Virus record (IMG/VR): IMGVR_UViG_3300032401_000006
Coordinates: 4,848-68,847 of that record
Direction: 5' to 3' (one strand)
Length of the DNA stretch: 64,000 nt
Source of the DNA: a virus
Part shown: one piece after another, positions 1 to 16,655 of the stretch
Position numbering within the stretch: position 1 is the stretch's first letter
Layout: every line of letters starts with the position of its first letter
The notes under the pieces: generated by a model
The model's database searches: none
Told to the model about the DNA's origin: nothing
Seen by the model: only the letters and a program-made list of their open reading frames with translations
Translations under genes and position numbers: made by a program

Positions 1-3000
1 AGACTTGATCTCGTCCGTGACGATTGCTTCCAAACTTGCAAAATCTTCCTGGATGCCTTCGACTTCTTTCGTGACCTTCTCGACCGAACCATCGACGGCC
101 GTCTTCACAGCATCCTGAAAGTAAGAACTCGAGGCCAGCAACTTGTTCACGTCCACGCTGACCGCTTTCGTGATGTCCATCTGGCCGATTCGCTCGACGA
201 CCGCGGCGGTGATCTTCTCGATCACGGCGGCCTCGAACTTCTCTTCGGCAGGAACGGGCTTGGGATTCTCAGGTACCTTACAATCCGCCCCGAGATCACA
301 GGCGTGGTCGTGCATGGCCTGGATCTTTGCCTGATCAGCAGCATTGTTCCGGCGGCCTATCTTCTCCAGGTCTGTCCCTTCAACCTTCTTGGCCGTCTCT
401 TCCTCCATCTTTTTCTTCTGTTCTGCGGTGAGGTTCGAGAAGTCCGGGGTCAGTTTCTTGGAGCCTTTCTCTTGATCATACCCGGTCAGGTTTATGTTGG
501 TGGTAATTCCTTCTGCTTTCTCGACCTTCTCTTCAGCACCGTGAACCGTTCCACCTTCCTCGGTCAGCTCCTCGGAGATTTCGACCAAGAACTCATCCCA
601 TGACTTCTGCATGAGATCTTTCTTCTCGGTGGCCGTGAGTGATTCCGACTGGAGGGCGTTCAGGAGGATGCGGGCGAGCGTGGAAGTCCACATGGGAAAC
701 AGGATGACCTCTTCGGTCTCTTCCCAAACCTCACCAAAGGACTTCGGGATGAATCGGATCTCACCACCTTCGGACAAAGCCGGAGATGATTCGGTGGGCC
801 AGGGCACATCCTCTCCCTGCTTGTTGATGGCGGAGAATTCCTTCTCGGTGAACTTCCGGACGTCGGAGGATTCAGACTTCTCCTTCTTGTCTTCCTTCGC
901 CTCCTCTTCCGGTTTCTCCTTCGCCTCCTCTTCCTTGCTGCCCTCTTCGCCAGGCTTCTTGCCCGTGGCTTCCGCCTCTTCCTTCTTTTTCTTCGCGTCG
1001 ATCTTGTCCTGGATGAATGCCGGGAGAGCTTTCTCGACCTCGGCCACAGGTTCGATCTTCTCGACTAGCGGAGGTGCCGGAGCCAGCCCGACCTCGACGG
1101 CTTTCTTGAAAGCAGGGGTCATCTCAGGAGCCTCCAGGATCCCTACAGCCTCCGTGGTCACCAAGCCACCATCGGCCGACTTCACCAGATACACCGTTGC
1201 CTTGGCATTGGCTGGGTTGTCAACCAGTGAGGCCTCCGAGAACGTGTCGCAGAAGAGACGGTTTGCCTTGACAAGCTCGGCGCCCTTCTGAACTTCGCAA
1301 GGTTCACGACGATACCTGCCGTGGGGCACACCAATCGAAAAGCCCTTCAGCGTCCCATCCAGCAATTTCTCCCACGTCGACTGCGCCCCCTTCGAGATGT
1401 AGACGCCGATGTCGATCTTGCGTTGGGCGTCATTCGGCATGATCTCAACAGCAGATCCGACGGCCTTGGTCGTGTCATGCATCTCGCGGATGTTCTTCGG
1501 CCAGATCTCGACGGCCTTCTTGGCGGCGTCGTAGTCGACGATGTCACCCTGCTTGTCGAGGTCCTCCGTAGTCATGGTTCCATAAACCATTCGACGTTCC
1601 TGGTCAACCTTTGAGATGGGAAGGGTCAAGAACACCGATCCCTCCGTGGCTGCTTTTTCTACTTGCATTTCCTGACCCTCCTGGGTTGATTTGATAATTG
1701 CGTCCTTACCGATCTCCGTGTCTTCGTCCTTGCGGAGTTTGACACCGGTAACTCGAATTTTCATCTTTCCACCGAGATCATATTCAGTCTTGGTGTAGTC
1801 CTTGATCCCGTAGTCTTTCAAAAGCTTGTCCGTCTTATTCTGCCCCATATCGAAGTGCTTCTGGAGAAACGCGTCGAACGGATCATGCTTGATCGTCACC
1901 GCCAGTAAGTCACCCTCTTTGTCAATCTTGGTCACATGCCCAGCCAGGACACCGAGAGTGAACTTTGGCGTCATATAGTTCAACTCTTTCACGGAGGCTT
2001 TCAAGTCCCGCTTCAGCGCCGTACTCAGATTAGAACTGTCGATCTTCTTGCTCAGACCGTCACGGAGCTTATCGAACTTGGCAAAGTCCTTCTCCGCGGC
2101 AGCCTGCCCCATCTGAGTCAGGTGAAGCTCTCCGCCCTTGACGTAATGAAACATCCCGGGCAGCTTCTCACTAGTGAACAACGACAGGTTATCAGATACT
2201 CTGGTCGAGGTACCAAGCAGATCTCCCTTGAAATCTATAGTCGTATCGTCATGTGTTTTGATTACGTTACAGATCTGATCGTACTTTGCTTTAGAGAATA
2301 TCTTGCCCTCGTTCCACTGCGCCCGTTGCTCTTCTGCTATGGCTGCACTGAAAATCTTATGATCACCCGATACCATGATGCCACGCAGGCCACCCTCTCT
2401 CACTAGCGGCGACGTATAGCCGATGTCATGATTGACCATTATGAATTGCTGAGCCAGCCGATCCTCTGCAGATACCTGCCCGTCAGACATCTTCACCATG
2501 ATGTCATCAGCCCTGAGTGCATTACCAACCAGGTGCCTGATACCATGATCGGTGAACTGCTGGCGGTTAGATTCGACTTCTTGATATACCAGCTTCTGAA
2601 CCGAGTCCTGCATCATGGCGTCTACGGATCCGGCATCCAAGTCCTTTAGTGACGGATCACGCAATATGGTACCGACGCGATCGACATAGTCCCGGGCCCG
2701 AAACGTAGTATCTCCCGCCAGATATCCGGTATAGTTATGAAGCTGCTCGTTCGCGTTGAAGATAATCCTGCCCGCATTCTCTTCCGACATCTTTCCGACA
2801 ACCGGCACGAGCTTGGCCCGATCTTCCGAGATGACTCTCAGATTCTTACTCATATTTGAGCGTATGTCGGAATACTTCGCCTGAGCCATCCTCATCTCAG
2901 GTGTGATTTCCTTCGCATCGGCCGGATAGTCCTTTATACTGATTCGTCCCCCAGTTTTTACAGACGGTGTCTTTTCTCCACCACCACTACCGCTATCTTC

Positions 3001-3303
3001 TGAACTAACAAACTGTCCGCCGTCAGAACTACCCTCCTCTGCACGTGGGTGCTCGGACTCATCCCACTTCTGAAGTTTTGACTCTTCGATAGCCTTAGTA
3101 ATCTCCGCCTCGGACATCTTCAGTTTCTTTCCTACGACACCCCACGCCTGAGCAAACGCCTGCCCTTCACACTTCTTCGGATCTCCCCCCTTATCCGTAC
3201 AGCGACTAAAAACAGAATTCCATATGGCACGCCACTGTCTCTGCTTTTTCGGGAGCAGCTGCTTGACCGGATCCGGCAGAGACTCGATCGTAGGGTACGG
3301 CAT
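1..3303 (-). CDS. Polyprotein: ChaB-like N-terminus + HD-family phosphohydrolase + XkdF-type prohead serine protease + acidic/coiled scaffold-like C-terminus (3' end runs off window, >1101 aa)
   Basis: Not in ORF track (no stop in window). Manually translated without stops from ATG 3303 (RBS AGGAG): MPYPTIESLPDPVKQLLP..QWRAIWNS..AFAQAWGVV (ChaB-like); TDHGIRH..NHDIGY..DH..THD..SDN (HD); ISKVDQERRMVYG..DLDKQGDIVD..NIREMH..AVG..GTLKGFSIG..EASLVDNPAN (protease). Confidence 0.88.
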   Translation of the reverse strand, partial: MPYPTIESLPDPVKQLLPKKQRQWRAIWNSVFSRCTDKGGDPKKCEGQAFAQAWGVVGKKLKMSEAEITKAIEESKLQKWDESEHPRAEEGSSDGGQFVSSEDSGSGGGEKTPSVKTGGRISIKDYPADAKEITPEMRMAQAKYSDIRSNMSKNLRVISEDRAKLVPVVGKMSEENAGRIIFNANEQLHNYTGYLAGDTTFRARDYVDRVGTILRDPSLKDLDAGSVDAMMQDSVQKLVYQEVESNRQQFTDHGIRHLVGNALRADDIMVKMSDGQVSAEDRLAQQFIMVNHDIGYTSPLVREGGLRGIMVSGDHKIFSAAIAEEQRAQWNEGKIFSKAKYDQICNVIKTHDDTTIDFKGDLLGTSTRVSDNLSLFTSEKLPGMFHYVKGGELHLTQMGQAAAEKDFAKFDKLRDGLSKKIDSSNLSTALKRDLKASVKELNYMTPKFTLGVLAGHVTKIDKEGDLLAVTIKHDPFDAFLQKHFDMGQNKTDKLLKDYGIKDYTKTEYDLGGKMKIRVTGVKLRKDEDTEIGKDAIIKSTQEGQEMQVEKAATEGSVFLTLPISKVDQERRMVYGTMTTEDLDKQGDIVDYDAAKKAVEIWPKNIREMHDTTKAVGSAVEIMPNDAQRKIDIGVYISKGAQSTWEKLLDGTLKGFSIGVPHGRYRREPCEVQKGAELVKANRLFCDTFSEASLVDNPANAKATVYLVKSADGGLVTTEAVGILEAPEMTPAFKKAVEVGLAPAPPLVEKIEPVAEVEKALPAFIQDKIDAKKKKEEAEATGKKPGEEGSKEEEAKEKPEEEAKEDKKEKSESSDVRKFTEKEFSAINKQGEDVPWPTESSPALSEGGEIRFIPKSFGEVWEETEEVILFPMWTSTLARILLNALQSESLTATEKKDLMQKSWDEFLVEISEELTEEGGTVHGAEEKVEKAEGITTNINLTGYDQEKGSKKLTPDFSNLTAEQKKKMEEETAKKVEGTDLEKIGRRNNAADQAKIQAMHDHACDLGADCKVPENPKPVPAEEKFEAAVIEKITAAVVERIGQMDITKAVSVDVNKLLASSSYFQDAVKTAVDGSVEKVTKEVEGIQEDFASLEAIVTDEIKS

Positions 3304-3438
3304 TTCCAATCTCCTAATTTTACGCTTAACTGACGGAGCCGGGTCGGAAAACCGATCCGAATAGTAGCACGTGGGGGTACGTCCCAAAAACGTCTACCGA
3401 GCTGTAAGGACGAGTTCCGAGCTGTTTTTGCACGTTTG

Positions 3439-3627
3439 CTAGTCTCGTCCGACCCATTTGTCGTCTTTTATCAGCCCAGAACCGACTGCAAACCGGTAAA
3501 CGGGCCGTTTCCGGAATGCGTCCAGATCTTTCACGGCCGCCAGGAATGCTTCCGATTTATAAGGCGGGAGATCCCACGTCATCTTCAGCCAGTCTTGGTT
3601 ATCTGGCAGAGCATCTATGTTGATCAT
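3439..3627 (-). CDS. 62-aa protein coupled to the ART gene; candidate immunity/partner
   Basis: Start overlaps the ART stop (TGATG); INIDALPDNQDWLKMTWDLPPYKS. Function inferred from position only. Confidence 0.6.
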   Translation of the reverse strand: MINIDALPDNQDWLKMTWDLPPYKSEAFLAAVKDLDAFRKRPVYRFAVGSGLIKDDKWVGRD

Positions 3628-4856
3628 CAGTTTCCCTTCAACCGACGGACGATGTACTTCGGATCCATACTCTCTGTATCGTCAAAAAAGTTCTCCTGGT
3701 TATATGAGAATACGGCGTGCATTTTAGTAACGCCTCCGAGTACGACTACCTCTGATTCGTTTACACAACCAAATCCGGTTCTCGGAGTGGCGATAATCTT
3801 ACTGACCGGAATCTTGGCGGCAAGTATCATCGGGTACATATCGTCCTTACTGCCAACAAAATTAGCCGCCGTATTAACATTCGTAGAGAATGACGACATT
3901 GGTTGCATACGAAGCGTCAGCGTCTTGACAGCTACCCGCTCAGAATCTAGGGCACTTCGCATCTCTGCCGTTACAGATTCTTGTGGTAGTCCAAGTCCAC
4001 GAAATACGGTGACTTCAGTAACTCCGTTCTTCGCATAAAAGTCTTGCGTCTGGTTATACATCGTGCGAAGAAATACGCGTGCCCCTTTCATCTGAAGATC
4101 GGCTTCTGGCTTAACAACCCACTCTCCATACTGTTCACTAATATGCTCACCAGCGTGGTCTAGTGTAGCACCAGTAAGATTAAACTCCTTCTTAGCTGCA
4201 GCCTGAAGAACCATAGCCGTCGGATTATTATCCAGTGAAGTACTTGCCCATGAGTGAACAAGTTGTTCTTCTGGTGAAAGTGGTACTGGATAATCATCTG
4301 CGCGAAGTGTAAATACCTTCGTAAACGCATCATACGCAGCCCTGTCTTCTAGACTGAGCTTCGATAGCCGATCCTGGAGATCCTTCTCAACCTGCTGCTT
4401 TAGCCATACTGCTCGGTCAGATGCTGGACTGCCGACGGCCATCTGACGGATATAGTTATCATCCAGCTTCTTCCAATTATCTATATCACTTGAACTTGGG
4501 ATATCACCCTCTCCAATAAATTCTCCAGATCCACTACTACTGGCAAAGCGGCCTCGCTCGTCATGCACGTCGTTGAACTTCTTTACAGGCTCTTCAGAAA
4601 ACTCCAGCGGGTCGAAGCCGAGCATGGCAACCACTTCCGGTGGTGTCACGTCCAGCTCTTCGTCGTCATCGGGCTCATCGGCAAGAATAGCACGCCAATC
4701 TTCCGGCTCGTCAGCTCCGATAAACGTAGCTTGTGGGAAAGCTATGGCAGACTTCTCAACCTTCTCTTCACCCAGCTGCTTCCTAAGCCTGGCAAGGGTC
4801 GCCTCATCCACGGGCCTGCCAGATAGTGATACTACTGTAAAAGTATCAGCTGGCAT
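3627..4856 (-). CDS. Head-module protein with C-terminal ADP-ribosyltransferase (R-S-E type) domain
   Basis: TVFRG, SSFSTN, NESEVVV motifs; likely start ATG 4856 overlapping the MuF stop; tag VKK-FNDVHDERGRF precedes the cargo. Confidence 0.8.
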   Translation of the reverse strand: MPADTFTVVSLSGRPVDEATLARLRKQLGEEKVEKSAIAFPQATFIGADEPEDWRAILADEPDDDEELDVTPPEVVAMLGFDPLEFSEEPVKKFNDVHDERGRFASSSGSGEFIGEGDIPSSSDIDNWKKLDDNYIRQMAVGSPASDRAVWLKQQVEKDLQDRLSKLSLEDRAAYDAFTKVFTLRADDYPVPLSPEEQLVHSWASTSLDNNPTAMVLQAAAKKEFNLTGATLDHAGEHISEQYGEWVVKPEADLQMKGARVFLRTMYNQTQDFYAKNGVTEVTVFRGLGLPQESVTAEMRSALDSERVAVKTLTLRMQPMSSFSTNVNTAANFVGSKDDMYPMILAAKIPVSKIIATPRTGFGCVNESEVVVLGGVTKMHAVFSYNQENFFDDTESMDPKYIVRRLKGN

Positions 4857-7332
4857 CCCACGCACCCCATCTTCTAGTCTTTGACATCTGCTTATATACT
4901 TGCGCGACTGAGAATGACCGAGCATCCGTTATGGCATAATACTTGTAATACGCACCCTTGTCATAAAACTTATTAAATACCGGATCAAAGACTACGTTAT
5001 CCTTCTCAGCGAAACCGTGAAAGTAAACAGAATTCTCAAAATTGCCAATCTGAGGGTATAACGTAGCGTGAACCACTTTCCAGTCCGGGTTGTCGGTTAC
5101 AAACTTTGCAGCCATCTCATAGCACAGCCCTCTACGTTCACCGTAATCATTCACTACAATACCTTCAGGTGTGTCTACTTCCGTAGGCCCAGCAATAGCC
5201 GTAAAGATATCTACAGGGTTGCCATCCTCATTCAGATCGCGACGTAACACGTCTTCTGGCACGCCCTTCTCTATCCTGGCAGCGTCAGTCTCACAATATC
5301 TACCCTTATCCAGATATTTCGTACCCGGACCGTACTTGGTCGGGAATCGCATATCTCTCTGATGCTTGGGCACCCCACTTCCGCCTCCGATAAACTTCCC
5401 GTCCTCTCCACGCGGGTGGTCTTCTTCGTTCCAGTCCTTCTCCAAATCAGTATTCTCAAACTTGCCAATATGAGCACCTATGAGCCACTTCGAAAATACT
5501 ACCGGGTGTATATAGGACTGAAGAGCTACAGTCGGTGTATTCCCCAGCTTGGCAGAGACCGCTTTCGCCACATCCTTTACGGCCAGCTTGTATGTCTTCT
5601 CGTCAGACGGAGCAGGCATCCTGGCAACCACCTCCTGAGCCGTACGTGTGCCGAGTAAGGTCCTAAAGTCCTTCGTCTGAAATCCACCATGATCCTGCAC
5701 GTGCGTATAGTCGAGTACCTTCCCGGCTGTCGTGTTGAATATTCGTCCACTCGGGCCCGCAGCATCCCGCCTAGCCAAGAGATCCCTGGCTACCGCGCGG
5801 TCGTTTACCGGAATATCCAGCGCAACACCCTTCTTACCGACAAACACCAGCCGCACATTATTGGGACTGTCACCAACCACGTGCTTTCCCATAAGCGTCG
5901 TGGCCCCGTAGGCCTTTACCGCACCACCAGTATCGTTCTCACCTCCAGGACGAAGGCCGGTTCTCATAATTAAACGAAGTGCGCAGGCCTCTTCCTTATT
6001 ACGACCGAACTGTATGTCCCGGTTGACGTCTGACGAGATTCGCCCTTCTTCCTTGTCGAGCTCCTCTATACGGGCAAACTTTGCCGTCGCCTGTTGCTCT
6101 TTCCAGGGCTTGCTATATATGGTTTGCTGACGGCCCTTGCTGTCATCTCCAACAGCATGGATGTCATCATTGGGATCTTCACTATATCGTACGTTCTTCC
6201 AACCCGGAGGGATTCGTATGTGCTGAAAGTGCTCCGGCAGATCCTTTCCGCTCTTCTGCTTCCAGGTCTTGCTTTCCTTATCATAGATGGCATTCTGGCC
6301 ACCACCTTCGGATACCCACCGGCCGCTCTCGTCCCGCTCCTGGTTCTCATCAAACCTCTTCGCTAGAGCAGACTTCATCCGAACCGTGTATATGAACCAC
6401 CGCTTCGGTCCCGGCCCGAGGTGCATACTGTATTCCGGCACCAACCCCTTCTTACGCAGTATGGATACTGCGTGCTTCCACCCCTTTACGGGAGGGATGT
6501 CGGTGTGGTTCTCGGAATTAAAAATGATCTTCTTGCCAGTCTTCAAATCTCTGAGTGCCTGCTTAGCCTCGTCCGAGATCAGCTCGTCTTCTTCTCCGTG
6601 GCCACCACCATACGTATACTGGTTAATACCCTCCGGATTAGACTTCTCCAGCTTCTGAAGTATGGCAGTCTCAACCTTCTCTACCGCAGCTAGGAACTCA
6701 TCGTCGTCCAAGTCATCCGGCCCGAAGTCACCGGGCATCGGAAGGAAGCTACGTACACAATTTGGGTGTGAGAGTGGATACTGCCGCGCCACTTCCAGAC
6801 TGATGATCAAACCATCCACCGCAGCACAGTCCTCATCACCGTCACCGTCCGATACCATTACCGCTTGTAGACCCGCCTGAGCGTATCCCTCAACCTGCCC
6901 CCATTGAAGTGCGTAGCCAGTCTCGGTACGCGCGATCATCTTCGCACGCCAATCTTCCATACCCGAGAACGTATCTTTTAGCCCTTCCGTAATTCCTTGC
7001 AGACCAGACTTATCCGCCAGCGCCTGGTTGAAGACCCCCAGCAGCCGCGTCCGGGTGGTGTTATCTATTCCATTCACCAGCTGCTTGGAGAAGTCATCCA
7101 GGTCTCGGACTATCTTCTCGCCCAGCCGTCGACTGCGGATGAAGTCCTCGGTGTTCACGTCACGGATGTCGAAGTTGTCCTCAGGCAAGATCGTACCTAG
7201 TGCAGCCGAGCCACCTGCAGCAACTACGTCACGCCAGAGGTCAGCTATCTGCGGCGCATACTTCTGGCTTATCTTATCCAAGTCGATGTCATTGATAATG
7301 GCATGGATCTCGTCTTGGGACAATTCAGACAT
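4846..7332 (-). CDS. MuF/SPP1 gp7-like head protein fused to a small unknown domain, DNA topoisomerase IB and a Cys-His-Asp (transglutaminase/papain-like) domain
   Basis: RAKMIARTET, C..DG, HPNCVRSF (MuF); IPPGW, GDDSKGRQQTIY, TGLRPG, YGATTL, FVGKKG, KDFRT, LGNTPTVALQSYIHP (Topo IB); GLCYEMA..FHGFAE..VFDP. Confidence 0.88.
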   Translation of the reverse strand: MSELSQDEIHAIINDIDLDKISQKYAPQIADLWRDVVAAGGSAALGTILPEDNFDIRDVNTEDFIRSRRLGEKIVRDLDDFSKQLVNGIDNTTRTRLLGVFNQALADKSGLQGITEGLKDTFSGMEDWRAKMIARTETGYALQWGQVEGYAQAGLQAVMVSDGDGDEDCAAVDGLIISLEVARQYPLSHPNCVRSFLPMPGDFGPDDLDDDEFLAAVEKVETAILQKLEKSNPEGINQYTYGGGHGEEDELISDEAKQALRDLKTGKKIIFNSENHTDIPPVKGWKHAVSILRKKGLVPEYSMHLGPGPKRWFIYTVRMKSALAKRFDENQERDESGRWVSEGGGQNAIYDKESKTWKQKSGKDLPEHFQHIRIPPGWKNVRYSEDPNDDIHAVGDDSKGRQQTIYSKPWKEQQATAKFARIEELDKEEGRISSDVNRDIQFGRNKEEACALRLIMRTGLRPGGENDTGGAVKAYGATTLMGKHVVGDSPNNVRLVFVGKKGVALDIPVNDRAVARDLLARRDAAGPSGRIFNTTAGKVLDYTHVQDHGGFQTKDFRTLLGTRTAQEVVARMPAPSDEKTYKLAVKDVAKAVSAKLGNTPTVALQSYIHPVVFSKWLIGAHIGKFENTDLEKDWNEEDHPRGEDGKFIGGGSGVPKHQRDMRFPTKYGPGTKYLDKGRYCETDAARIEKGVPEDVLRRDLNEDGNPVDIFTAIAGPTEVDTPEGIVVNDYGERRGLCYEMAAKFVTDNPDWKVVHATLYPQIGNFENSVYFHGFAEKDNVVFDPVFNKFYDKGAYYKYYAITDARSFSVAQVYKQMSKTRRWGAWDAS

Positions 7333-9664
7333 TCGGCACCCTGGACTTGACCGTACTGATAACCACCTGAGCCTGCTCGGCGAACATGCGGGCGAAGATT
7401 TCCTTCATCCGCTCTTCAGACCGCTTACGTATAATTTCCAGCTTGGGATCTTTCTTGGGGTAGGTGACTTTTTTAATATCTTCACCCTTCTCGATAGCTT
7501 CCAACTGCTCCTGGATCTCCCGCGCCGTATCTAAAGGAATCTCTTTCGTCTCAAACTTGCGCAGCAGCTTTCCCTGCTTGATCCGGTTGCGGACAAACTT
7601 GCGCCACGTCTGAAGCTCAACGTCGCACTTATTTATGTCCACGCTATCACAATCATATTCAACCTCGGAGAACAGCTCGTCTACCTTCGCCAGCTTCTCT
7701 TCTCCGGTATCACGGACGACACCAACTGCACGGTCATCCCAAAGCTCAACCATGTCCCGGTCTTTTACGTTCGTTATCGGTAACGCTACGCCGATATGCT
7801 CCAGGCACCAGTCACGGATCAGTTTCTCTGTCTGCCAGTTCTGCGCCGAATCCGGGCTGCTGACTCTGGCCGTCAGGATGCGGACTTCCTTGCCCTCGCC
7901 AAGCCACTGCTGGACCCGCTCGACCATCTTCGGTACCGGATCACCTATGACCGATTTGTCTTTCGTATGCTCGGCCAGCGTGCCATCCAGATCAACTCCG
8001 TACCAACCACCCTCGGTGCCGTCACCTTTTTCGACTTTTGTCTTTGCAGCCAAAGCCTTGGACTCGGGCTTCGTGGCCGGGGGGCCTGCCTTACCGCCGG
8101 CCACTGGCTTAACGACAGGTTTTAATTGCGGCGCGGCCTTGACACCTATTGCGGGTGGCACGACCGGTTTAGTACTAAGCGGCGTTTCGGGCAAGGTTGG
8201 ATTTTGCATTGATGCGGTGGCTGCTGCGGTGGTCTCGGTCTGAGTATCCTGATTCGGGTGCTTCTCGAAATAACTCTTGTACTGCTGTTGATAATCCTTC
8301 GCCTCGCCCTCGATCGGTATGAAGCCAGTCGGCGACATGATACCATTCGGGATCCCGATGGGCTTCTTGCCGGCGTTCATCCGGGCCTCATCGATGGAAA
8401 TGATGCCGCTCTTGACGAGCATGACATCCTTCTCGGCCTGTGCCTTCTCGTCCGTCGTCCGCTCTTCAGTGAATATAAACCTAAGCTGTGGCATGCCCTG
8501 AACGGTCTGAATTTCGTTCGTTATGATATCCTCGATGAAGTTCCAGAGTGGTTCTGTGGCTTCGTCTTCCGCCGTGTCGGCTGTCTCCGCCGTGGACCGG
8601 TTCATCTGTGACACGTACGGAGTGGGGCTGGTGTGAAAGATGGCACAACACCTACGGACGATGAACTCGGATATCTTCGTGACCTTGATCGACATGTCAC
8701 GCTCGATCATTCGCTCCAGCTTGAACCCGTCGGGCATGAAGTGAAGGCGGTTGCGAAGATTCGGATCACCCACGATCGAAGCATTGAACTTGTCCGTGAA
8801 TTCCATGATCTGCGTCATCGACCATTCCTTCGGCAACGTGGCGAAACCAGCCGGTACATTTCCCTGTGTGAAGTAGTTCAAATCATAGATGTCCCGACGA
8901 AGAGCTATGTTTATGTTCAGCAGCAGCCACTCGACTTCAGACATGCCGTATGGACTGTCGTTCGACGGATTCCGAACGCAGTACAAAATCTGATCCTGGG
9001 TGAAGCCCTCATAGACAACACCTTTTATGATCTGCTGAAACGCCGGGTAGGGTGGAGCGGGCGGGCGACCAGTGACGTCGATCAGCGGTTTGATCGTCCT
9101 CCCCGACAAGACCTCGTGCGCGGCAACACCTTTGCCATCCCGGGTCGGCCAGCGGGCGATCGTCGCCGCGTCGTATAGATACGAGTCTTCAAGAAACGCC
9201 GCGATCCAGATAGCGAACGAATCCCTGCCGTTCGGCTTCATCCAATATTTAGTCAACGCCTCCATCTTGTCCTGATACTTGTCGATCTTGTCGCGTTCTG
9301 CCTCGATCGGCACGATGGCCCATTCACGTCCTCTGATCTTGTTCTTCTTCGCCTCGATGCAATACCTGACCGGATCCCAAGCAGCCATCGCCTGAAGAAC
9401 GTCGAAGCCCGTCAGTCCGGCCCGTGGCATGAACTGGATGTTGTACGACGATGGATAATCCCACTTGCGGGTGTTCGCCATGTCCCGCTCGTAAGGCGCC
9501 AACGGCTCACCCGGAGGCATGAAGCCCGTCGAGAAACCACCGAGGGCTTGCGCGGCCTGACCCGCCAAGGACTGACTGCGGGCGGTCAGATATGCTCCTG
9601 GATTCTTGGCGATCTCCGACATGTCCGTTCTACGAACCAGATTGGTGTTGATGCTGGCAGCCAT
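7325..9664 (-). CDS. Portal protein with inserted HAD-family phosphatase domain
   Basis: YGMSEVE, YFTQGNVPAG, ISIDEAR portal motifs, located between terminase and MuF; WYGVDLDGTLAE..ILTAR..LWDDRAV HAD motifs at ~7690-8010. Confidence 0.88.
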   Translation of the reverse strand: MAASINTNLVRRTDMSEIAKNPGAYLTARSQSLAGQAAQALGGFSTGFMPPGEPLAPYERDMANTRKWDYPSSYNIQFMPRAGLTGFDVLQAMAAWDPVRYCIEAKKNKIRGREWAIVPIEAERDKIDKYQDKMEALTKYWMKPNGRDSFAIWIAAFLEDSYLYDAATIARWPTRDGKGVAAHEVLSGRTIKPLIDVTGRPPAPPYPAFQQIIKGVVYEGFTQDQILYCVRNPSNDSPYGMSEVEWLLLNINIALRRDIYDLNYFTQGNVPAGFATLPKEWSMTQIMEFTDKFNASIVGDPNLRNRLHFMPDGFKLERMIERDMSIKVTKISEFIVRRCCAIFHTSPTPYVSQMNRSTAETADTAEDEATEPLWNFIEDIITNEIQTVQGMPQLRFIFTEERTTDEKAQAEKDVMLVKSGIISIDEARMNAGKKPIGIPNGIMSPTGFIPIEGEAKDYQQQYKSYFEKHPNQDTQTETTAAATASMQNPTLPETPLSTKPVVPPAIGVKAAPQLKPVVKPVAGGKAGPPATKPESKALAAKTKVEKGDGTEGGWYGVDLDGTLAEHTKDKSVIGDPVPKMVERVQQWLGEGKEVRILTARVSSPDSAQNWQTEKLIRDWCLEHIGVALPITNVKDRDMVELWDDRAVGVVRDTGEEKLAKVDELFSEVEYDCDSVDINKCDVELQTWRKFVRNRIKQGKLLRKFETKEIPLDTAREIQEQLEAIEKGEDIKKVTYPKKDPKLEIIRKRSEERMKEIFARMFAEQAQVVISTVKSRVPNV

Positions 9665-9668
9665 CGGG

Positions 9669-10120: not shown

Positions 10121-10124
10121 TTCG

Positions 10125-11732
10125 TTATTTCTTTGCCACCAGATAGATCGCTGTGTCCCGCGCCGAGCGATCGGTGGAGAACTCGTGGTGCTCCAACCTG
10201 GCGCCGAGCTTGTCCTTGTACTCGACGACGAAGCCCGTCGGAATCCGGTAGGTCTGAATCACGCCGTCGTTCTTGGTCTTGAACAGGCGGGGCTTTTCAG
10301 GTGAAGTGAAGACTTCTTCCGCGGGAGCGGTGTCGAGGATGTTCTTGTCCGTCAACTCCTGTGTAGTCACGATGACCTCACCCGTCTTGCCCGAGTTGCC
10401 CTGCGTGGAGAGGGCGGCTTCGGACATATCCGTCTCAGCTTTACCTTCGGGGATCAGTGACGCTAAATCCGCAGTAGCAGGAATTACGTCAACACCAGGA
10501 GGGAGGTAGAAGTCATCCTTGTAGAGGTCGGAGGATTCAGATTTCTTTGTGGATAGATACCATTGAAGACTCTTGTCACCCCCTTTTCCACTCGATACCG
10601 AAACCGTTCGAAGATATGAAGTACTGCTGCCAACGGCAGTTGAGTCTGGATTGGATGTTTTTATCTTAAAGTCATGATTCCAATTGCCTGTCTCTTTATC
10701 AACTGAAATTTGATGCATCCCACTAACGGTCTTACCACGATATTCCATTTGCCCCGGCTTGTCATAATAAGCCATATCCGGGCGAGCAGGAACACTGCGC
10801 TGCTTGTAGCCCGCCTCAGTCAAAGCTGGACCGCGTGCAGTATCACCTTCCTTTTTATCTCCATCACCAGAACTGCCTTCTCCTCCTCCCGATCCGCCCT
10901 GTTCGCCTGGCCTGCCTTCATGTCCGAAGTTTCCCGAGCCTGGCCCGCCCTTCATGATCAGCCCCTTGAAGACGTTCGTCTCGGGAGCGAGTCTGATGCC
11001 GGTAAACATCGAGGAGTGATCGGAAGCCTGGACGGCCGGGGCGAGATCGTGAAACGTCTGCGCCAGGGGAACAGCAGCGGGAAAGTCCCCGTGGGTCGCG
11101 CCGCACTGGGCCGAGGCTTCGGGCAGGGGCTGGTGGCCGGCAAACATCTGGTCGTGCTCGTGGAGGTCGGAGGATTCGGACTTATTTTTATTTTCAATAC
11201 GACGATTGATAACTTCCCGAACGGCACCTTCCCTGTCCGGATATTTGACACCAGTGATAGGGTTGCCATTTGGACCGTGGGCAACCCAGCCCTTCGTTCC
11301 TTTATTCTTGTCCTCCTTGAAACGGGCATATCCAGCTTTCTCACCTCCCACCTTCACCATGCGGTTGTCTTCATGCCCTTTATCGTGGTGATCAGGGTGA
11401 AGTTCATGCTCTCGAATCGGAAATAGATGTGACCATTCTCCCGCTCCTCCACCGCCGGACCCGCTTCCGGACCCACCCTGCTCGCCTGGCCGCCCCTCAT
11501 GCCCGAAGTTTCCAGACCCAGGGCCGCCCTTCGTCAAATCCTGCCTGGCCGCAATCTCGCCCTCAAACTTCTGAGCCATCTCGGTATGGTGTTTGGCCAG
11601 GCGGGTCGAGCCCAGCGCCAGATACCTGTCCGCTCGCTGGCGGTGGAAGACCAGCTTCTCCTCGGCAGATCCCTCCTCGACGTCGACTTTGCCCTCGGGC
11701 TCCTCTTCCTGCTTCTTCAGTTCGGTCACCAT
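10125..11732 (-). CDS. Putative internal head polyprotein with two tagged cargo cassettes
   Basis: 535 aa, RBS AAGGAG; two copies of KGGPGSGNFGHEGRPGEQGGSG and two of KSESSDL bracket unrelated domains. Confidence 0.8.
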   Translation of the reverse strand: MVTELKKQEEEPEGKVDVEEGSAEEKLVFHRQRADRYLALGSTRLAKHHTEMAQKFEGEIAARQDLTKGGPGSGNFGHEGRPGEQGGSGSGSGGGGAGEWSHLFPIREHELHPDHHDKGHEDNRMVKVGGEKAGYARFKEDKNKGTKGWVAHGPNGNPITGVKYPDREGAVREVINRRIENKNKSESSDLHEHDQMFAGHQPLPEASAQCGATHGDFPAAVPLAQTFHDLAPAVQASDHSSMFTGIRLAPETNVFKGLIMKGGPGSGNFGHEGRPGEQGGSGGGEGSSGDGDKKEGDTARGPALTEAGYKQRSVPARPDMAYYDKPGQMEYRGKTVSGMHQISVDKETGNWNHDFKIKTSNPDSTAVGSSTSYLRTVSVSSGKGGDKSLQWYLSTKKSESSDLYKDDFYLPPGVDVIPATADLASLIPEGKAETDMSEAALSTQGNSGKTGEVIVTTQELTDKNILDTAPAEEVFTSPEKPRLFKTKNDGVIQTYRIPTGFVVEYKDKLGARLEHHEFSTDRSARDTAIYLVAKK

Positions 11733-11763
11733 GACGACTCCTTTCTCAATTCAGTGAGATCTT

Positions 11764-13008: not shown

Positions 13009-13463
13009 ACTGTTCCATCCTCCATCTGCTGCAAGAGTCCTTTGAGGGCACCCTGCATCCGTTCATAGTGATCTGCCGGCCACATGTGATATGGATTGTC
13101 AGGCTCGAAGAAAGTCTCAATCATCATTTGAGAAGGCCCCTGCTTGGTCAATGTCAGTGTGATTTGACACTGAGCATCACCGAAGACCGCCTTGTCGATG
13201 GGTGTGTTCGTATCTACTTCAGGGATCTTCACGCTGCCAGTGGGTGGATCCGTGCGCAGTGTGGCCCGCGCGCTGTTCTCTGTCTTGGGCGTGTCAGGAT
13301 CGCAGACGTGAGGGTGCCACTCGGTATTCGGATAAATCGGACCATCGGGATAATCGAATGCGTTTCCACCGTTCTCCAAGGCCATCTTGCAGATCATTCG
13401 CCCACACCGCTCACAGGCATGGGGCCCGTAGTAAATGATTCGTGAACTTCTGAATGTCATCAT
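13005..13463 (-). CDS. Hypothetical protein with CxxC/HxC zinc-binding motif
   Basis: ACERCG..PHVC; RBS AAGGAG. Confidence 0.6.
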   Translation of the reverse strand: MMTFRSSRIIYYGPHACERCGRMICKMALENGGNAFDYPDGPIYPNTEWHPHVCDPDTPKTENSARATLRTDPPTGSVKIPEVDTNTPIDKAVFGDAQCQITLTLTKQGPSQMMIETFFEPDNPYHMWPADHYERMQGALKGLLQQMEDGTV

Positions 13464-14309
13464 CTCAGTTTCTCCTTTTCCAGCGTAAGTAAAGAAATCA
13501 ATTTCACTTCAATCCTCACCATCCGGCCCGAACGAAAACGAATCCGATGGGCTCATGCTCGGGCTGAACGAAAGTCCGTCCTCGTCGATGGGCGGGTCAA
13601 CCTGCGTACTCACCGGAGAGATGGTGGTCGCGGCCTTCAAGCCAATCTTTACCCCCGACCGCGATACCTGCTACTGTTCCGATAAACCCATGTCTTCCTA
13701 ACTTCATGTTCTTCATATCAGCTCCTCATATGATCTATTTCACCGTTTCACCGTCACGGCCGCTCACCGGAGAGCAAATCATGGAAGGTCAAAGTGCAAA
13801 CCACAGAGAACGACTCAACAACAAAGAACAAAGCAACAACAAGATGTGCAAAGGTGTATACAGCAGCATCAAAGACGCAAAGCAGACTCACTCCGATGCA
13901 TTTCATCAACTTCATCACGTGTGACAGAACCAAAGTCCGTTTGTCGCCCTCGAACATCATGCTGCAGAGTCGAGACACGTGCTTCCCTGCACCGCGCCAT
14001 ATGTATGACAGAACGAGGGTTCATTTGACACCACCAAACCTTCGGACCCAAGGACTGCTATACCGAATCGGTGGCTGGTTATAGGCAGCAGGGGGGTGAG
14101 GTGTCGCGTCACAGGTCACCAGACTCTGCCTGGTGGAGGTGTGTGTGCGACAGAACGGACTGTGGTCACACACTGTATACAGTCCGTGGCTGACTGCAAC
14201 GCGGGCGAGACGTATAAACCCACGGACTATCTCCCAACAACCGCACCCAGGCGAGCCTCCAAGAGTTGTTGGGTGTATGACAGCCCCCTGAATACACGTG
14301 TTCTTCGTT

Positions 14310-15665
14310 TTAGGCACTGATTTGCTCCCTTGCCTGCTCTTTGCCCATGCGCTCAGCTCTCTGACTGTAGTAGTCCAGAAAGCCCGAGCACGCGTTCTCT
14401 ATGAGCAGGTGCGTCGCCAAGTACACGAGTGCATCCATTCTGTTCGGAGATGGCTGCCCTGGCACCCACAGACACTGCTCGTCCTCCAGTTCGGGGAACG
14501 AGCCCACGTGGTGCATCTTGCCGTTCTCATAGAGTGCACTGACCGGATCTGCCCTGACTTGTTTGCCCCTGCTGGCATGCACCAGCGTGACTGGCACGTT
14601 GCCGTCGACTATGTGTATCGTGGTCTCGACCATCTCGCCGCCTTGATTGCTCTCCGCCACGATGAAGTCCGCCTTGTGTCGTTTGAAGACGTGCACGGCC
14701 TTGGTGGCCCAATCAAGCGGACTGCCCTGCATGGACGCGTCCTCCACCAAGTACCCGTGATCGGCCGTCTTGCCACCGCACATGATGCCGGCCTCGTTTC
14801 CACCCGACGTGGTGGAAGGGTCTATGGCCACCGCCACGCGGTCGAACTCAGGCGGTGCGACGGGCAATCTGTATCTTTCTATTATGTCGCGTGTCCAGAG
14901 CGCTCCCGGTGCCTCGGTCACGTCTTCGGCGTCGAGCTCCATGCGCTTTGCTATCGACGTCATGTCTTTGGATATCTCTTTGAGTGCTTCCGCACTGATG
15001 TAGCCATTTTCGCTCGACTTCCAGTGAAACGCCCTCCATCTGCTTTCTCGCCCTTCGGTCGACGCTCTGAGCTCTTCTTGTTTCGCAGCAGCAAACATCT
15101 TGGCAGCGTGTTGTGGGTCTCTCGCCTTGCTCGTGAACTTTCGTCTCGTCCACAGACTGGGTGGAGTGTAGATGAAGACTGCATCACCGTTCGTGTCCAG
15201 GAGCATCGGAGCGCCCACCAACTCCCACGCGTCCTCGCACATCAACTGCCACTCGTCCAGTATGAGCAAGTCCGCGAAATCGCCCCTCAACGTGTCCGCG
15301 TTCCACGCAGTCTTCGCCCTGATGCGCTGCAGTGTTCCAGGGCGCTCTATCGTGTGCTCGGATTCGTTCTTCTTGAACACGCCCGCGTCTATCAGTGGCA
15401 GCAGTATCGACGTGACCCTGAACCAGAAGGCCTCGACTTGCTCTTGAGTGGGCGCCGCGTACAGAACTCTGTTGAACTTCGGCTGCAGGAAGCGCTTCAC
15501 GGCTTTCTCCGACACACCTCTCGTCTTGCCGCCCCGTCTGCCTGCCCTGACCACCGTTCGCTTGGCCGTGCAGTCTATGAAGAGCTTCTGTTGCGGGTTC
15601 AGCGCGCAATCACTGAGCTCCACCTTGTACTTGCGCTCTTGCTGCGTGTTGTAGCCTCTGCGCAC
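14310..15665 (-). CDS. terL: Terminase large subunit
   Basis: Walker A AGRRGGKT, Walker B LILDE, nuclease VAIDPS..SPNRMDALV. Confidence 0.95.
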   Translation of the reverse strand: MRRGYNTQQERKYKVELSDCALNPQQKLFIDCTAKRTVVRAGRRGGKTRGVSEKAVKRFLQPKFNRVLYAAPTQEQVEAFWFRVTSILLPLIDAGVFKKNESEHTIERPGTLQRIRAKTAWNADTLRGDFADLLILDEWQLMCEDAWELVGAPMLLDTNGDAVFIYTPPSLWTRRKFTSKARDPQHAAKMFAAAKQEELRASTEGRESRWRAFHWKSSENGYISAEALKEISKDMTSIAKRMELDAEDVTEAPGALWTRDIIERYRLPVAPPEFDRVAVAIDPSTTSGGNEAGIMCGGKTADHGYLVEDASMQGSPLDWATKAVHVFKRHKADFIVAESNQGGEMVETTIHIVDGNVPVTLVHASRGKQVRADPVSALYENGKMHHVGSFPELEDEQCLWVPGQPSPNRMDALVYLATHLLIENACSGFLDYYSQRAERMGKEQAREQISA

Positions 15666-15848
15666 CTTGTTCTGCTCTCCCTCTTTATGAGTGCTCTGCT
15701 TGGTTGAGTATATGACTACGGTGTATGGATAGATGACGGCTTCTGCTGTGTGGATGTGTGGCTGGTGTCGGGTGAAATACCTCTGTCTGACTTGAGTGTC
15801 TCTTTTGGTGTCTCTGATCGGCTGGTCATACGTATGGCGCGAATGATG

Positions 15849-16655
15849 TCAACGTGACCGATGGCCCTGCCCAATGATTGAGGAGGCATTGGTGGTTGTA
15901 GGAGCGGCACCAAGCCCCACTCCACCATCTTGTCTCACTCCTCTCTGGTGATCTTTGTTGCTTCGTCTACGATGATCGTTTCCCTCACTCTTCTTGAAAT
16001 ACGCGCTCTTGACCGCCGCCCTCACTGCCTTCTCGAACTCGGCTGGATGCTTGTCCACCGAATCTTTCATCGGACCTGAAAGATTGGCCGAGTACAGCAA
16101 CTTGCCGGAGCGCCCCAAAGATTCCACCGTGGCGTGATCCACCATGTGCTCCAGATCATCCTGAAGGACCTTCCCGTCGTCTCTGTCCCTCAGCAGCGAC
16201 TCCCTTGCGTTCTTGTACGCGCGGTCGTATTGCTCTCCCATCTGCTTGGCGTTGAACTTCCCGCCCCTCTCCGCCAGAAACGAGGCCCCGTGATGAGACA
16301 CCGCCTCGATGGACTTGACCCCGGGGTGCTCCGCCAGATACCGCACGTCGCCACCAGAGAGTGATCGGCCCGCCGGGTGGTTGTGGACCACGGACAATTG
16401 ATTTGTGGGATCCTTCATCTTTGCTTCCACTTCTTGCGAGACGGTGGCTCCAAAGAAGTGGCCTTTTTGATCACCCACCACGCCACCATGCTGATCCAGC
16501 ACGATCACGCGCTCGTTGCCTGTCTCTTTTCCGTGCGCAACAACCGTGCTTCTTGCACTCTCCACTCCCGCGGTGTACTGATTCCCGCGGAACTCGTGCC
16601 CCTCGACGTCGCCTTTGACTATGGCTGGCCAGGACGTTGGATTCCAGTTGTTCAT
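15849..16655 (-). CDS. Tagged JAB/MPN-like metalloenzyme
   Basis: IVK-GDVEGHEFRGNQYT tag; E..HNHPAGRSLSGGD metal motif. Confidence 0.7.
   Translation of the reverse strand: MNNWNPTSWPAIVKGDVEGHEFRGNQYTAGVESARSTVVAHGKETGNERVIVLDQHGGVVGDQKGHFFGATVSQEVEAKMKDPTNQLSVVHNHPAGRSLSGGDVRYLAEHPGVKSIEAVSHHGASFLAERGGKFNAKQMGEQYDRAYKNARESLLRDRDDGKVLQDDLEHMVDHATVESLGRSGKLLYSANLSGPMKDSVDKHPAEFEKAVRAAVKSAYFKKSEGNDHRRRSNKDHQRGVRQDGGVGLGAAPTTTNASSIIGQGHRSR

Follow-up and report, generated by a model that had tools for sequence, protein, structure and literature searches.

Background

In phage T4, a short N-terminal leader brings cargo into the prohead, where the prohead protease gp21 removes the leader at a hydrophobic-x-P1 site, and the cargo (Alt and the internal proteins) is injected along with the DNA. 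Cleavage sites follow L/I-x-E in T4 and V/L/I-x-A↓S in herpesviruses, and the HK97 enzyme cuts after Lys103 (here and below, ↓ marks a cut, whether known or predicted). Flexibly linked, short linear peptides suffice to load foreign cargo into HK97-fold shells; examples are the C-terminal tail of the HK97 protease and the cargo-loading peptides of encapsulins. For phi12, which has an HK97-like system, cleavage after K or R has been described (PMC8569155).

Polyvalent proteins carry many unrelated effector domains per polypeptide, are encoded among virion late genes and include MuF and portal fusions (Iyer, Burroughs, Anand, de Souza, Aravind 2017, PMC5512222). Their domains comprise ART-PolyVal, PBECR, LPD3, Zeta-like kinase, 2H/2'-5' ligase, InPase, and RelA/SpoT, and release of such domains by embedded peptidases, assemblin-like ones included, has already been proposed (PMC5512222). 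MuF polymorphic toxins of temperate phages join an N-terminal MuF head domain to variable C-terminal toxin/effector domains (Jamet et al. 2017, PMC5576092).

Proteins of the head module

The window, i.e. the whole 64-kb stretch of viral DNA analysed, was claimed in its preliminary description to hold six head genes sharing a Lys-ending linker, a short tag, a spacer, and cargo. Inspection of the ORFs bears this out: all listed motifs are found where they had been located, in genuine minus-strand genes encoding Proteins A to F, and all features below are on that strand. The large terminase (14310..15665; Terminase_6C, 4.6e-12) marks the cluster as part of the packaging/head module.

Protein A (1..3303) extends 347 nt past the window start and has a 1,247-codon open frame, with 1,245 aa from a TTG start. 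A small N-terminal domain is followed by LQK with an HPR-class tag and a Gly/Ser spacer (LQK↓WDESEHPRAEEGSSDGGQF, 3010-3075), HD-like cargo, a QVEK site, the S78_2/XkdF protease, an LVK site, and a charged scaffold-like region. At the tag junction, AF2 with a 5-row alignment predicts a helix that ends at the Lys, with pLDDT of 21-34 for tag and spacer. The head maturation protease domain (1144..1668) passes the Pfam cut-off for PF14550 (24 bits) with a score of 27.8 bits, and matches the PHROG head maturation protease phrog_9427 at 4.5e-32; its His (REMH, 1477-1488) and Ser (GFSIG, 1330-1344) are invariant in 12 sequences. It is flanked by the candidate sites QVEK↓AATEGS (1636-1665) and LVK↓SADGG (1165-1191), and the hydrophobic-x-K behind the domain is kept in the 12-sequence alignment. 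As for the cargo, 5 sequences agree throughout in its H..H, HD, H, H, and D columns and its Atlas neighbours at 0.90-0.92 are HD/PDE proteins, while Foldseek gives no match at E<=0.001; the HD identity is a lead only.

Protein B (3627..4925) starts with an N-terminal part of 113 aa that includes a KVEK↓S site, followed by a degenerate HPR-like tag (VKK↓FNDVHDERGRF, 4545-4586) and ART-like cargo. The cargo has a weak Pfam DRAT match (2e-4, under the cut-off), and 20 ORFs homologous to it occur in other tagged proteins. By eye, the N-terminal part is similar to the C-terminal tail of the MuF-TopoIB protein of L001, a near-identical phage.

Protein C (4846..7332) contains three junctions. LEK↓SNPEGINQYT (6613-6651) stands between a MuF-like anchor and an 80-aa cargo, LAKR↓FDENQERDESGRW (6316-6366), a degenerate HPR-class member, precedes a Topo IB domain (1.6e-20), and LEK↓DWNEEDHPRGEDGKF (5392-5445) precedes the C-terminal cargo, homologues of which follow NQ tags in the loci L032 and L104. 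Protein D (7325..9664) is a portal (1.7e-17) with a Pro/Ala-rich linker, the junction VEK↓GDGTEGG (8006-8035), HAD-like cargo with weak PHROG matches and a DLDGT motif at 7979-7996, and a C-terminal part; the junction has the site and lacks the tag, just as had been noted before. Protein E (10125..11732) has a 68-aa leader and two cargos, neither matching a Pfam or PHROG family, each preceded by a Lys and the same GRPG tag (LTK↓GGPGSGNFGHEGRPGEQGGS, 11469-11537, and IMK↓GGPGSGNFGHEGRPGEQGGS, 10890-10958). Protein F (15849..16655) starts with a 14-aa leader ending in IVK, followed by an NQ-class tag (IVK↓GDVEGHEFRGNQYT, 16572-16622) and cargo with an HNHP...S..D motif at 16347-16385.

Among the domain labels proposed earlier, those of XkdF protease, Topo IB, and portal thus hold. 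MuF is under the Pfam cut-off and is recovered by a PHROG head-morphogenesis match (2e-11), the ART and HAD labels have weak matches, and the folds behind the labels JAB (Protein F) and Cys-His-Asp (C-terminal cargo of Protein C) were not confirmed.

Distribution and conservation of the tags

Lys-anchored regular expressions, drawn up only once the motifs had been seen, give 7 matches in the six proteins, compared with a mean of 0.0035 after residue shuffling (0 of 2000 shuffles reach 7), and these are the sole matches in six frames of the 64 kb. Occurrence of the same motifs in hundreds of unrelated viral contigs provides an independent check on these post-hoc expressions. Scanned as DNA patterns, the four tag classes GD..GH.F.GNQ[WY]T (NQ), GG.GSGNFGH.GRPG..GGS, W[DN]E..HPR...G.F (HPR), and NP.G.NQYT match at least 117, 112, 107, and 116 IMG/VR stretches, respectively. 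Among the matches listed, the first three scans yield 718 tags from 326 loci, and the distinct cargos of at least 120 aa number 502; since loci were retrieved through the tags' own strict patterns, only listed matches were counted and many contigs are fragments, these counts describe a non-random sample. Searched against 1.84 billion cluster representatives, a profile of the NQ tag finds 2,382 at E<=1e-3, of which 94 reach E<=1e-30. A single protein has as many as 9 tags, and 8-tag proteins can be as long as 3,461 aa.

The NQ pattern occurs in only 8 stretches of 185,579 prokaryote genomes. HPR gives 3 weak-to-moderate matches in 7.3 Gb of plasmids vs 12 in 2.3 Gb of phages, and in a single case, a membrane protein of an actinomycete conjugative plasmid, the native N-terminus is the HPR tag, so this class cannot be tied strictly to the capsid. 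Among cultured phages, Sonali, Polewnik, and THSA-485A have related portals and no tags.

Third-codon-position identity at invariant tag codons is 0.51 within loci vs 0.44 between loci, and the two identical 21-aa GRPG tags of Protein E differ at 12 of 63 nt. Synonymous sites are thus about equally diverged within and between genomes and the peptide is what is kept: selection, not recent duplication, maintains the tags as peptides.

Anchors, cargo, and cassette exchange

Tag-bearing junctions come after portal, MuF, or protease anchors, or after short leaders. According to Pfam, the 139 distinct regions of at least 150 aa directly upstream of a first tag include portal families (26, 6, 4, and 1), MuF (13), and proteases (5, 3, and 2), where one region may match two families. 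The commonest families among 150 neighbouring ORFs are MuF (7), DUF2213 (6), terminases (4 and 4), and capsid and portal families. The cargo behind the tags is varied, with ART, kinases, nucleases, TopoIB, and HD, as well as NUDIX, 2'-5' RNA ligase-like, and Acb1 domains. The expected association with head modules is therefore seen in the portal, MuF, and protease context; the tags, however, neither always follow Lys nor are specific to XkdF.

The portal of L001 is identical to that of the window over its N-terminal 470 aa, and whole tag+cargo cassettes differ between the two phages, which agrees with the earlier view of the cargo as swappable. L001 lacks the ART, the tagged C-terminal cargo, and the tag+HD cassette, the last being missing from an otherwise present counterpart of Protein A. 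It carries other tag+cargo units instead, and its portal has an additional K↓SNPEGINQYT+cargo insertion. Before Topo IB, L001 has an NQ tag vs the HPR-like tag of the window; one cargo hence bears different tag classes in different phages, this near-identical relative included. No recognisable tag lies within 150 aa upstream in 10 of 17 ART and 5 of 8 Topo IB homologues. Tag, Gly/Ser spacer, and cargo form a real, swappable cassette tied to head modules.

Pre-tag residue and head protease

The residue before the tag is linked to the family of the head protease on the same contig: K/R with S78/XkdF, D with DUF2213, and L/A/H/N with divergent DUF2213. Among 48 records, S78_2 or S78 genes are found in 10 of 16 with pre-tag K and 0 of 32 others, vs DUF2213 in 16 of the 32 non-K and 0 of the 16 K records; all 7 strong DUF2213 matches belong to the D lineage. 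In-locus typing gives K in all 12 S78 loci, D in all 11 DUF2213 loci, and L, A, H, and N in 8, 3, 1, and 1 of 13 divergent DUF2213 loci, respectively. The 11 XkdF loci have K (9), R (1), and A (1), the last being a fixed-offset reading of a locus where Lys sits one residue nearer the tag. The match holds in 16 of 16 protease clusters (50% identity), which represent few independent changes, as protease and junction residue are inherited together in phage lineages. S78, S78_2, and DUF2213 matches span similar profile regions, and all, DUF2213 proteins included, match PHROG head maturation proteases.

One pre-tag residue is common to all NQ tags in 105 of the best-scoring 150 of the 2,382 representatives, each with at least two NQ tags (permutation maximum 42 in 2000). 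The HPR class, whose register was a matter of choice, is less regular at the upstream position. Five proteins natively begin with M-GD..GH.F.GNQ, which equals the predicted post-cut end. The head proteins, 4,867 aa in total, contain VEK 10 times, vs 3 times in 16,281 aa elsewhere, and the motif borders the protease domain.

That the pre-tag residue tracks the protease family supports cutting just before the tags, and the head protease probably cuts at this residue; we infer the exact position of the cut from sequence comparison. The preliminary description had the XkdF-type protease cutting after Lys, which fits the tracking residue and the native M-GD starts but does not extend to phages elsewhere that pair D or L/A with DUF2213-type enzymes.

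Proposed mechanism and alternatives

The head module would encode virion polyvalent proteins assembled from cassettes. Cargo enzymes would enter the procapsid joined to a portal, MuF, or protease-scaffold protein, or to a short N-terminal leader. Each junction would open with a short site whose last residue depends on the lineage (here hydrophobic-x-Lys), continue with a conserved tag of 10-21 residues from a small family, and close with a spacer rich in Gly/Ser. Within the procapsid, the S78/XkdF-type serine protease of the phage would cut after Lys and free about nine cargo proteins with a tag at each N-terminus. This reading as a whole, with protease-freed cargo each starting with a tag, seems to us somewhat favoured on balance. 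More tentative is what the freed tag would do, for which a shared role in the capsid or during ejection is the likeliest reading, though short of even odds. The three tag classes had been proposed to be separate routes, which the presence of different classes on the same cargo does not support; being the same across protease families and swapped on the same cargo, the tags look like one common handle.

The tags might instead act after delivery, binding a conserved host component or controlling how stable the injected protein is or where it is placed, with no capsid role. This is rather unlikely, even though tags are conserved across phages that differ in protease, portal, and capsid families, the plasmid-encoded membrane protein bears one, and the cargo (ART, NUDIX, 2'-5' RNA ligase-like, Acb1, nucleases) is typical of early anti-host/anti-defence enzymes. 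Near absence of the NQ tag from cellular genomes, and hence from most plasmids and integrative elements, speaks against it, as do the few HPR matches in plasmids, and tight coupling to head-protease sites would be superfluous for such a role. Slightly less probable still is that tags act before the cut, as docking elements that lie C-terminal to the site and recruit cargo junctions to the head protease. All the protease families found may have a common fold, as their similar profile spans and common PHROG matches would allow, which would explain the same tags across families; the tag region is also predicted to be flexible and always directly follows the lineage-specific site. Docking, however, does not account for the candidate sites that lack a tag (those of the scaffold, those flanking the protease, and the one between portal and HAD), nor for the five proteins and the plasmid protein that begin natively with a tag and need no cut, and three or four unlike tag sequences would need to fit one groove.

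Polyproteins could also work uncut, with the pre-tag residue a lineage-specific helix end or linker. The case for cleavage is comparative throughout, and the virion RNA polymerase of phage N4 is reported to be packaged unprocessed. Some polyvalent cargo is likewise noted as packaged or transferred full length (PMC5512222). Absence of proteolysis is nevertheless improbable, as it leaves unexplained the residue-protease match across all clusters, the common pre-tag residue per protein, and the native M-GD starts, and the longest 8-tag proteins would have to exit uncut via the tail. Finally, swaps exactly at tags between near-identical phages would suit DNA-level recombination joints with no peptide role, but the synonymous divergence and the nucleotide differences between the identical tags of Protein E make this hardly credible.

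Comparison with known systems

The 8-14-aa leaders ending in hydrophobic-x-K that precede tags in some proteins look like the T4 capsid targeting sequence. In T4, however, the leader itself serves as the address, and once it is removed the cargo keeps nothing conserved, whereas here the tag remains at the N-terminus predicted for the mature cargo and is common to unrelated phages. The junctions here also resemble the cleavage sites of HK97/assemblin-type systems: P3 is hydrophobic, P2 can be any residue, P1 depends on the lineage, and a small residue follows the predicted cut. The sites of those systems, however, lie in capsid and scaffold proteins, and a conserved post-cut peptide is not part of their rules. 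The HK97 tail and encapsulin peptides are C-terminal and serve one shell each, in contrast to the tags, which are predicted to be N-terminal. In comparison with MuF toxins, for which the main text of PMC5576092 does not mention a motif, linker, or cleavage, there are several cargos per protein, non-MuF anchors too, and proviruses are a minority of the contigs (2 of 48 records are classed as such).

The Pfam families of polyvalent proteins recur as tagged cargo here. PMC5512222 stresses zincin-like metallopeptidases, in contrast to the S78/XkdF- or DUF2213-type head proteases of these phages, and its main text describes neither conserved junction tags nor a junction residue tied to the head-protease family. 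The tags had been thought undescribed, and the searched literature, Pfam, NCBIfam, and PDB indeed gave no account of them. The junction tags are a new feature of already known polyvalent virion proteins, in a pattern common to thousands of uncultured phage proteins.

Tagged junctions and their recurrence

All eight junctions named in the preliminary description were found in place, and each leads from a hydrophobic-x-Lys site through a short motif and a Gly/Ser-rich stretch into a domain. Lys-anchored regular expressions, composed after the motifs were known, so that the real control is recurrence in other contigs, recover 7 junctions in six head-module proteins (A–F) and match nothing else across the six reading frames of the 64 kb. 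When the residues of these proteins are shuffled, 0.0035 matches result on average and 7 are reached in 0 of 2000 cases, by which a chance origin of the tags is rejected.

To follow recurrence, four motifs were back-translated into DNA patterns and IMG/VR was scanned. The patterns GH[PE]F[RH]GNQ[YW]T (NQ class), GSGNFGH.GRPG (GRPG class), W[DN]E..HPR...G.F (HPR class), and NP.G.NQYT occur in at least 117, 112, 107, and 116 stretches, respectively, with 2–9 copies per stretch in many of those listed. The tagged junctions of the preliminary description are confirmed and much extended. Among the matches listed for the first three scans there are 326 loci (2.76 Mb) with 718 tags (370 NQ, 209 GRPG, and 139 HPR) and 502 distinct segments of at least 120 aa downstream of tags (median 216 aa). 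The NQ logo reads aliphatic, x, K (62%; L 14, A 7), G, D, x, x, G, H, P/E, F, H/R, G, N, Q, W/Y, T, Gly-rich; the GRPG logo K/D/L/N, GG.GSGNFGH.GRPG[EQK][VRI]GGS, then Gly-rich; and the HPR logo W[DN]E..HPR...G[KQR]F, then Gly-rich. Single ORFs may hold all tag classes together (e.g., in loci L104, L116, and L078), and hybrid tags join a GG.GSG prefix to a GH.F.GNQ core.

The SNPEGINQYT variant of the window is not present in the first 326 loci, its own pattern NP.G.NQYT being found widespread later. This pattern also heads several small families with their own conserved continuations (loci L346–L461), such as NPNGANQYT with ..RQK.CW behind it and FNR-NPTG.NQYT with.GMRTAEEVQ behind it; some of these matches, those of the NPNGANQYT families for instance, may come from an unrelated motif at the N-terminus, or a related motif may be put to another use.

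When 1.84 billion cluster representatives are searched with a profile built from 140 NQ tags, 2,382 match at E<=1e-3, 494 at E<=1e-10, and 94 at E<=1e-30, and a single protein can have as many as 9 matched stretches; the ten representatives looked up come from metagenome sources only. The NQ profile has no match in the PDB, the 140 tag peptides have no real match in Pfam, and NCBIfam holds no tag family. Among cultured phages, the NQ tag has one weak match, in Xanthomonas phage Rb1, and tblastn with the GRPG tag finds none, for which the low-complexity filter is a possible cause.

Association with phage heads and cargo

The source is a single virus record of 68,847 bases, of which the window covers bases 4848-68847, and the head/packaging module takes up the first 16.7 kb of the window on the minus strand. 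It encodes, all on that strand, protein F (268 aa), the large terminase, a sigma-70-like factor (window:11764-12324; regions 2 and 4, E 1.6e-11 and 1.3e-9), protein E (535 aa), protein D, a portal fused to a HAD-like part (779 aa), protein C, a MuF-like/Topo IB multi-domain protein (828 aa), the ART-like protein B (432 aa), and protein A, a 1,247-codon open frame that extends beyond the window start. The sigma factor gene sits within the head module, with the terminase on one side and protein E on the other. Identical copies of proteins E, F, and C occur on contigs of up to 94,260 bases, so the record may be incomplete.

Protein A starts with a small domain, which is followed by an HD-like domain, then by an S78_2/XkdF head protease, and at the end by a charged tail that resembles a scaffold. 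That the head module encodes an XkdF-type protease, as proposed earlier, is borne out by PF14550 (27.8 bits against a curated cut-off of 24) and phrog_9427 (4.5e-32), and the residues H64 (REMH) and S111 (GFSIG), which we take to be catalytic in S78/XkdF-type proteases, are invariant in 12 of 12 aligned sequences. The MuF part of protein C scores 18.4 bits with Pfam PF04233, under the cut-off of 29.6, and 19.2 with NCBIfam SPP1 gp7 (cut-off 39.65), and matches PHROG head-morphogenesis families to 2e-11. Foldseek with the HD-region model gives no match at E<=0.001, HD/PDE-type entries appearing among the weak matches only, and phmmer against the PDB finds nothing useful for the HD, C-terminal cargo, and F segments. 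AF2 of protein F with no alignment has a mean pLDDT of 39, too low to judge its putative JAB fold. For protein F, as for the HPR region of protein C, homologous-protein searches return the query itself only, and no HEXXH peptidase family is among the Pfam matches of the window proteins.

In 139 distinct regions of at least 150 aa directly upstream of an ORF's first tag, Pfam finds portal families (26+6+4+1), MuF (13), and head proteases (5+3+2; one region can match two families). Of 513 tagged ORFs, 304 have their first tag no more than 80 aa from the first Met, and the commonest families among 150 sampled neighbouring ORFs are MuF (7), DUF2213 (6), terminases (4+4), capsid, and portal. In cultured phages the HPR class stands at the portal or adjoining it without exception (three phages): in a portal extension of Faecalibacterium phage FP_Brigit, gp4 of Pseudomonas phage Orisa03, and gp66 of Gordonia phage Phendrix. 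The NQ-like tag of Xanthomonas phage Rb1 is in an 'internal head protein'. Across 185,579 prokaryote species (one genome each), the NQ pattern occurs in 8 stretches, mostly on short MAG contigs. By gene context, the tags evidently belong to phage heads.

Most of the 150 sampled cargos have no Pfam family, and 22 families are matched in total. ART families (7+5+1; one cargo can match several) are accompanied by Zeta toxin, AAA_33, MuF, and PI3/PI4-kinase-like domains (3 each), PBECR nucleases (2+1), and GNAT (2+1), with single matches including Topo IB, LPD3, Ntox50, and 2'-5' RNA ligase-like. Anti-defence-type enzymes among the tagged proteins are Acb1 anti-CBASS (2), NUDIX (7), and 2'-5' RNA ligase-like (3+1), and an ADP-ribosylglycohydrolase is encoded as a neighbour at tag loci. 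Tagged proteins also include intein/Hint pieces (Hom_end_hint, Intein_splicing, and PT-HINT) and one rubrerythrin/ferritin-like protein.

Residue before the tag and head protease family

The residue before the tag is constant within a genome and varies between genomes. Among the 150 best-scoring of the 2,382 representatives, less than 50% identical to one another, 105 have one shared residue (K, L, F, E, etc.) before all their NQ tags, versus a maximum of 42 in 2000 permutations. Within a locus, the residue agrees across tag classes in 15 of 19 comparisons, several of these loci being on the same contigs.

This residue follows the protease family. Of 48 virus records, 16 have K before the tags; genes of S78_2 (4) or S78 (6, one below the cut-off) are present in 10 of these 16 and in 0 of the 32 others, and DUF2213 in 16 of the 32 non-K records and 0 of the 16 K records; its 7 strong full-length matches all belong to the D lineage (7 of 10 D records) and its 9 weak partial matches to the L/A/N lineages. 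When proteases within the fetched loci were typed by phmmer, the pre-tag residue was K (9), R (1), and one called A at 11 XkdF loci, K at all 12 S78 loci, D at all 11 DUF2213 loci, and L (8), A (3), H (1), and N (1) at 13 loci with divergent DUF2213. The XkdF locus called A has its Lys one residue closer to the tag. Over 16 clusters at 50% identity there are zero exceptions, in a link that rests on few deep lineages. The DUF2213 proteins, in which a protease is fused to a scaffold, match PHROG head maturation proteases at ~1e-50, and the divergent ones do so at ~1e-6. The divergent lineage has the consensus aliphatic, R/K, x, L/A, then G, and its member L340 repeats the layout of protein A (small domain, tag and cargo, protease, scaffold), with a ...LHL|VGATG junction (the bar marks the proposed cut) ahead of the protease.

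Several features of the proteins agree with cutting here. VEK occurs 10 times per 4,867 aa of head proteins versus 3 times per 16,281 aa elsewhere in the window (~11-fold enrichment), on both sides of the protease domain and at the portal-HAD junction, and hydrophobic-x-K directly after the protease domain is kept among K-lineage relatives. Five proteins start with M-GD..GH.F.GNQ, where Met removal yields the predicted post-cut end. AF2 (5-row alignment) places a helix up to the Lys, then the tag and spacer at pLDDT 21–34, then a fairly confident cargo core. A complex prediction of the protease domain (12-row alignment) with a junction peptide (140-row alignment) scores 0.03 against a mark of 0.32 and weighs neither way. 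The hydrophobic-x-P1 layout is that of T4 gp21 and herpesvirus assemblin sites. A precedent is the HK97-like system of phi12, which cuts after the basic residues R128 and K87 (PMC8569155). The junction as a putative head-protease cleavage site is well supported by comparison. The earlier proposal that an XkdF-type protease cuts after Lys is supported, by comparison, for K/R with XkdF and S78; other protease lineages have D or L/A/H/N instead.

Exchange of tags and cargo between phages

A related-locus search with the portal finds one locus, L001, a near-identical IMG/VR relative whose portal is identical to that of the window over the N-terminal 470 aa. In the L001 protease-scaffold protein, ...IQK runs directly into the stretch before QVEK|AATEGS, whereas in protein A the HPR tag and the entire HD-like domain are inserted directly after the Lys. 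The L001 portal has an additional K|SNPEGINQYT+cargo unit, and its MuF protein has a leader and QPR-type tag at the start and a further NQ tag with cargo inside. Before Topo IB, L001 has an NQ tag and the window FDENQERDESGRW. What changes as a unit is tag plus cargo.

Genes C and B share 80 nt, read in different frames (window:4846-4925, minus strand). L001 has a single MuF-TopoIB protein, the C-terminal tail of which is similar to the N-terminal 113 aa of B, so the arrangement in the window resembles one gene broken in two by an inserted cassette. Upstream of the window, the gene region of the major capsid protein (genome bases 1-4400; its counterpart is L001:9792-12916) appears interrupted. 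Two of its ORFs resemble homing endonucleases by eye, a repeated stretch lies on either side, and Rfam group I intron matches fall at L001 12063-12264 (45.6 bits, under the gathering score of 50, E 1.2e-9) and L001 10882-10966 (22.9 bits).

The preliminary description had three tag classes act as separate cargo routes. The HD-like cargo, however, has an HPR tag in the window and GRPG on other contigs; Topo IB has HPR-like versus NQ and GRPG, the C-terminal cargo of protein C HPR versus NQ, and ART HPR-like versus NQ, GRPG, and HPR. A tie of tag class to cargo type is rejected, since one cargo family carries differing classes across unrelated contigs. The classes are therefore interchangeable, which counts against three separate routes, and that claim is not supported as put forward.

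The two identical 21-residue GRPG tags of the window differ at 12 of 63 nucleotides, and third-position identity over seven invariant codons is 0.51 within loci (484 tag pairs) versus 0.44 between loci. Recent duplication or gene conversion is thus rejected. It is the tag peptide that is evidently under selection.

Possible role of the tags

How tailed phages choose, process, and deliver the proteins that accompany their DNA is understood in few model phages only. The tags probably do not serve the protease as its specificity element, since phages of four protease groups and with several families of portal and capsid have them in common, and candidate protease sites without tags also exist. 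We favour a common handle that would act once the cut has been made, either in the capsid or during ejection; alternatively, tags may dock to the protease before the cut or act in the host after delivery. A counter-example to a purely capsid role is the conjugative-type plasmid of Amycolatopsis sp. FU40 (NZ_CP091379.1), where a 189-aa protein (L465:7992-8561) has an HPR-class tag at residues 4–17. It starts with ML-A-WNEADHPRGADGRF and continues into a hydrophobic stretch that probably spans the membrane; relaxase and coupling-protein genes are present on the plasmid, and none of the 25 features of the 16-kb stretch covered is a phage gene.

Taken further, the shared-handle reading would make the small set of interchangeable N-terminal tags a common 'cargo handle' of tailed phages, protease-exposed and needed to retain proteins in the DNA-filled head or to initiate their passage out through the tail, across differing proteases, portals, and capsids, which we consider possible but rather doubtful. 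If true, the handle would act as a portable address by which phage particles could be loaded with chosen proteins and deliver them, and its sequence would mark injected effectors in metagenomes. In any case, the tags may be a general signal for packaging or ejection, which can be tested, and, if portable, could serve to load proteins into phage particles. They mark likely packaged effectors in uncultured phages, including ART, nucleases, kinases, NUDIX, and Acb1-like enzymes (in cargos and regions upstream of first tags), and for three or more groups of head protease they predict where cleavage would fall: hydrophobic-x-K/R, x-x-D, and hydrophobic-R/K-x-L/A.

Comparison with known systems

Published work (PMC5512222) covers polyvalent proteins, fusions of effectors to MuF or portal, and the release of domains by peptidases embedded in them. 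Junction tags are not mentioned in the parts consulted of that paper's main text or of the main text of the MuF toxin paper (PMC5576092), and a literature search on motif strings or topic, covering sources other than subscription journals and supplements, finds none. In agreement with the earlier expectation, the searched literature holds no prior description of the tag system, nor is the NQ tag in Pfam, NCBIfam, or the PDB; the junction tags are provisionally regarded as undescribed.

A MuF polymorphic toxin of a temperate phage has an N-terminal MuF domain, one toxin at the C-terminus, and an immunity gene beside it; the window has several cargos in place of the one toxin. In the T4-type system, packaging requires no more than an N-terminal leader, cannot do without it, and is accompanied by its removal by the head protease; here, leaders of 8–68 aa stand before the tags. 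The encapsulin cargo-loading peptide is terminal and binds the inner face of the shell protein.

Polyvalent proteins have at least two unrelated effector domains per polypeptide (Iyer et al. 2017), as do protein C (MuF, Topo IB, and two cargos) and protein A (HD-like domain, protease, and scaffold). Their virion or late gene setting with MuF or portal fusions is also found here, with the genes between the terminase and protease-scaffold genes, and likewise in other tag loci. Their embedded peptidases are mostly zincin-like, with assemblin-like ones at the C-termini of some, probably processing them (PMC5512222). In the window, an S78_2 protease is embedded in protein A with a scaffold-like region after it. 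The tagged cargo families are the domain set of polyvalent proteins (Iyer et al. 2017). The tags evidently add something new and general to a system of known kind, the polyvalent proteins.
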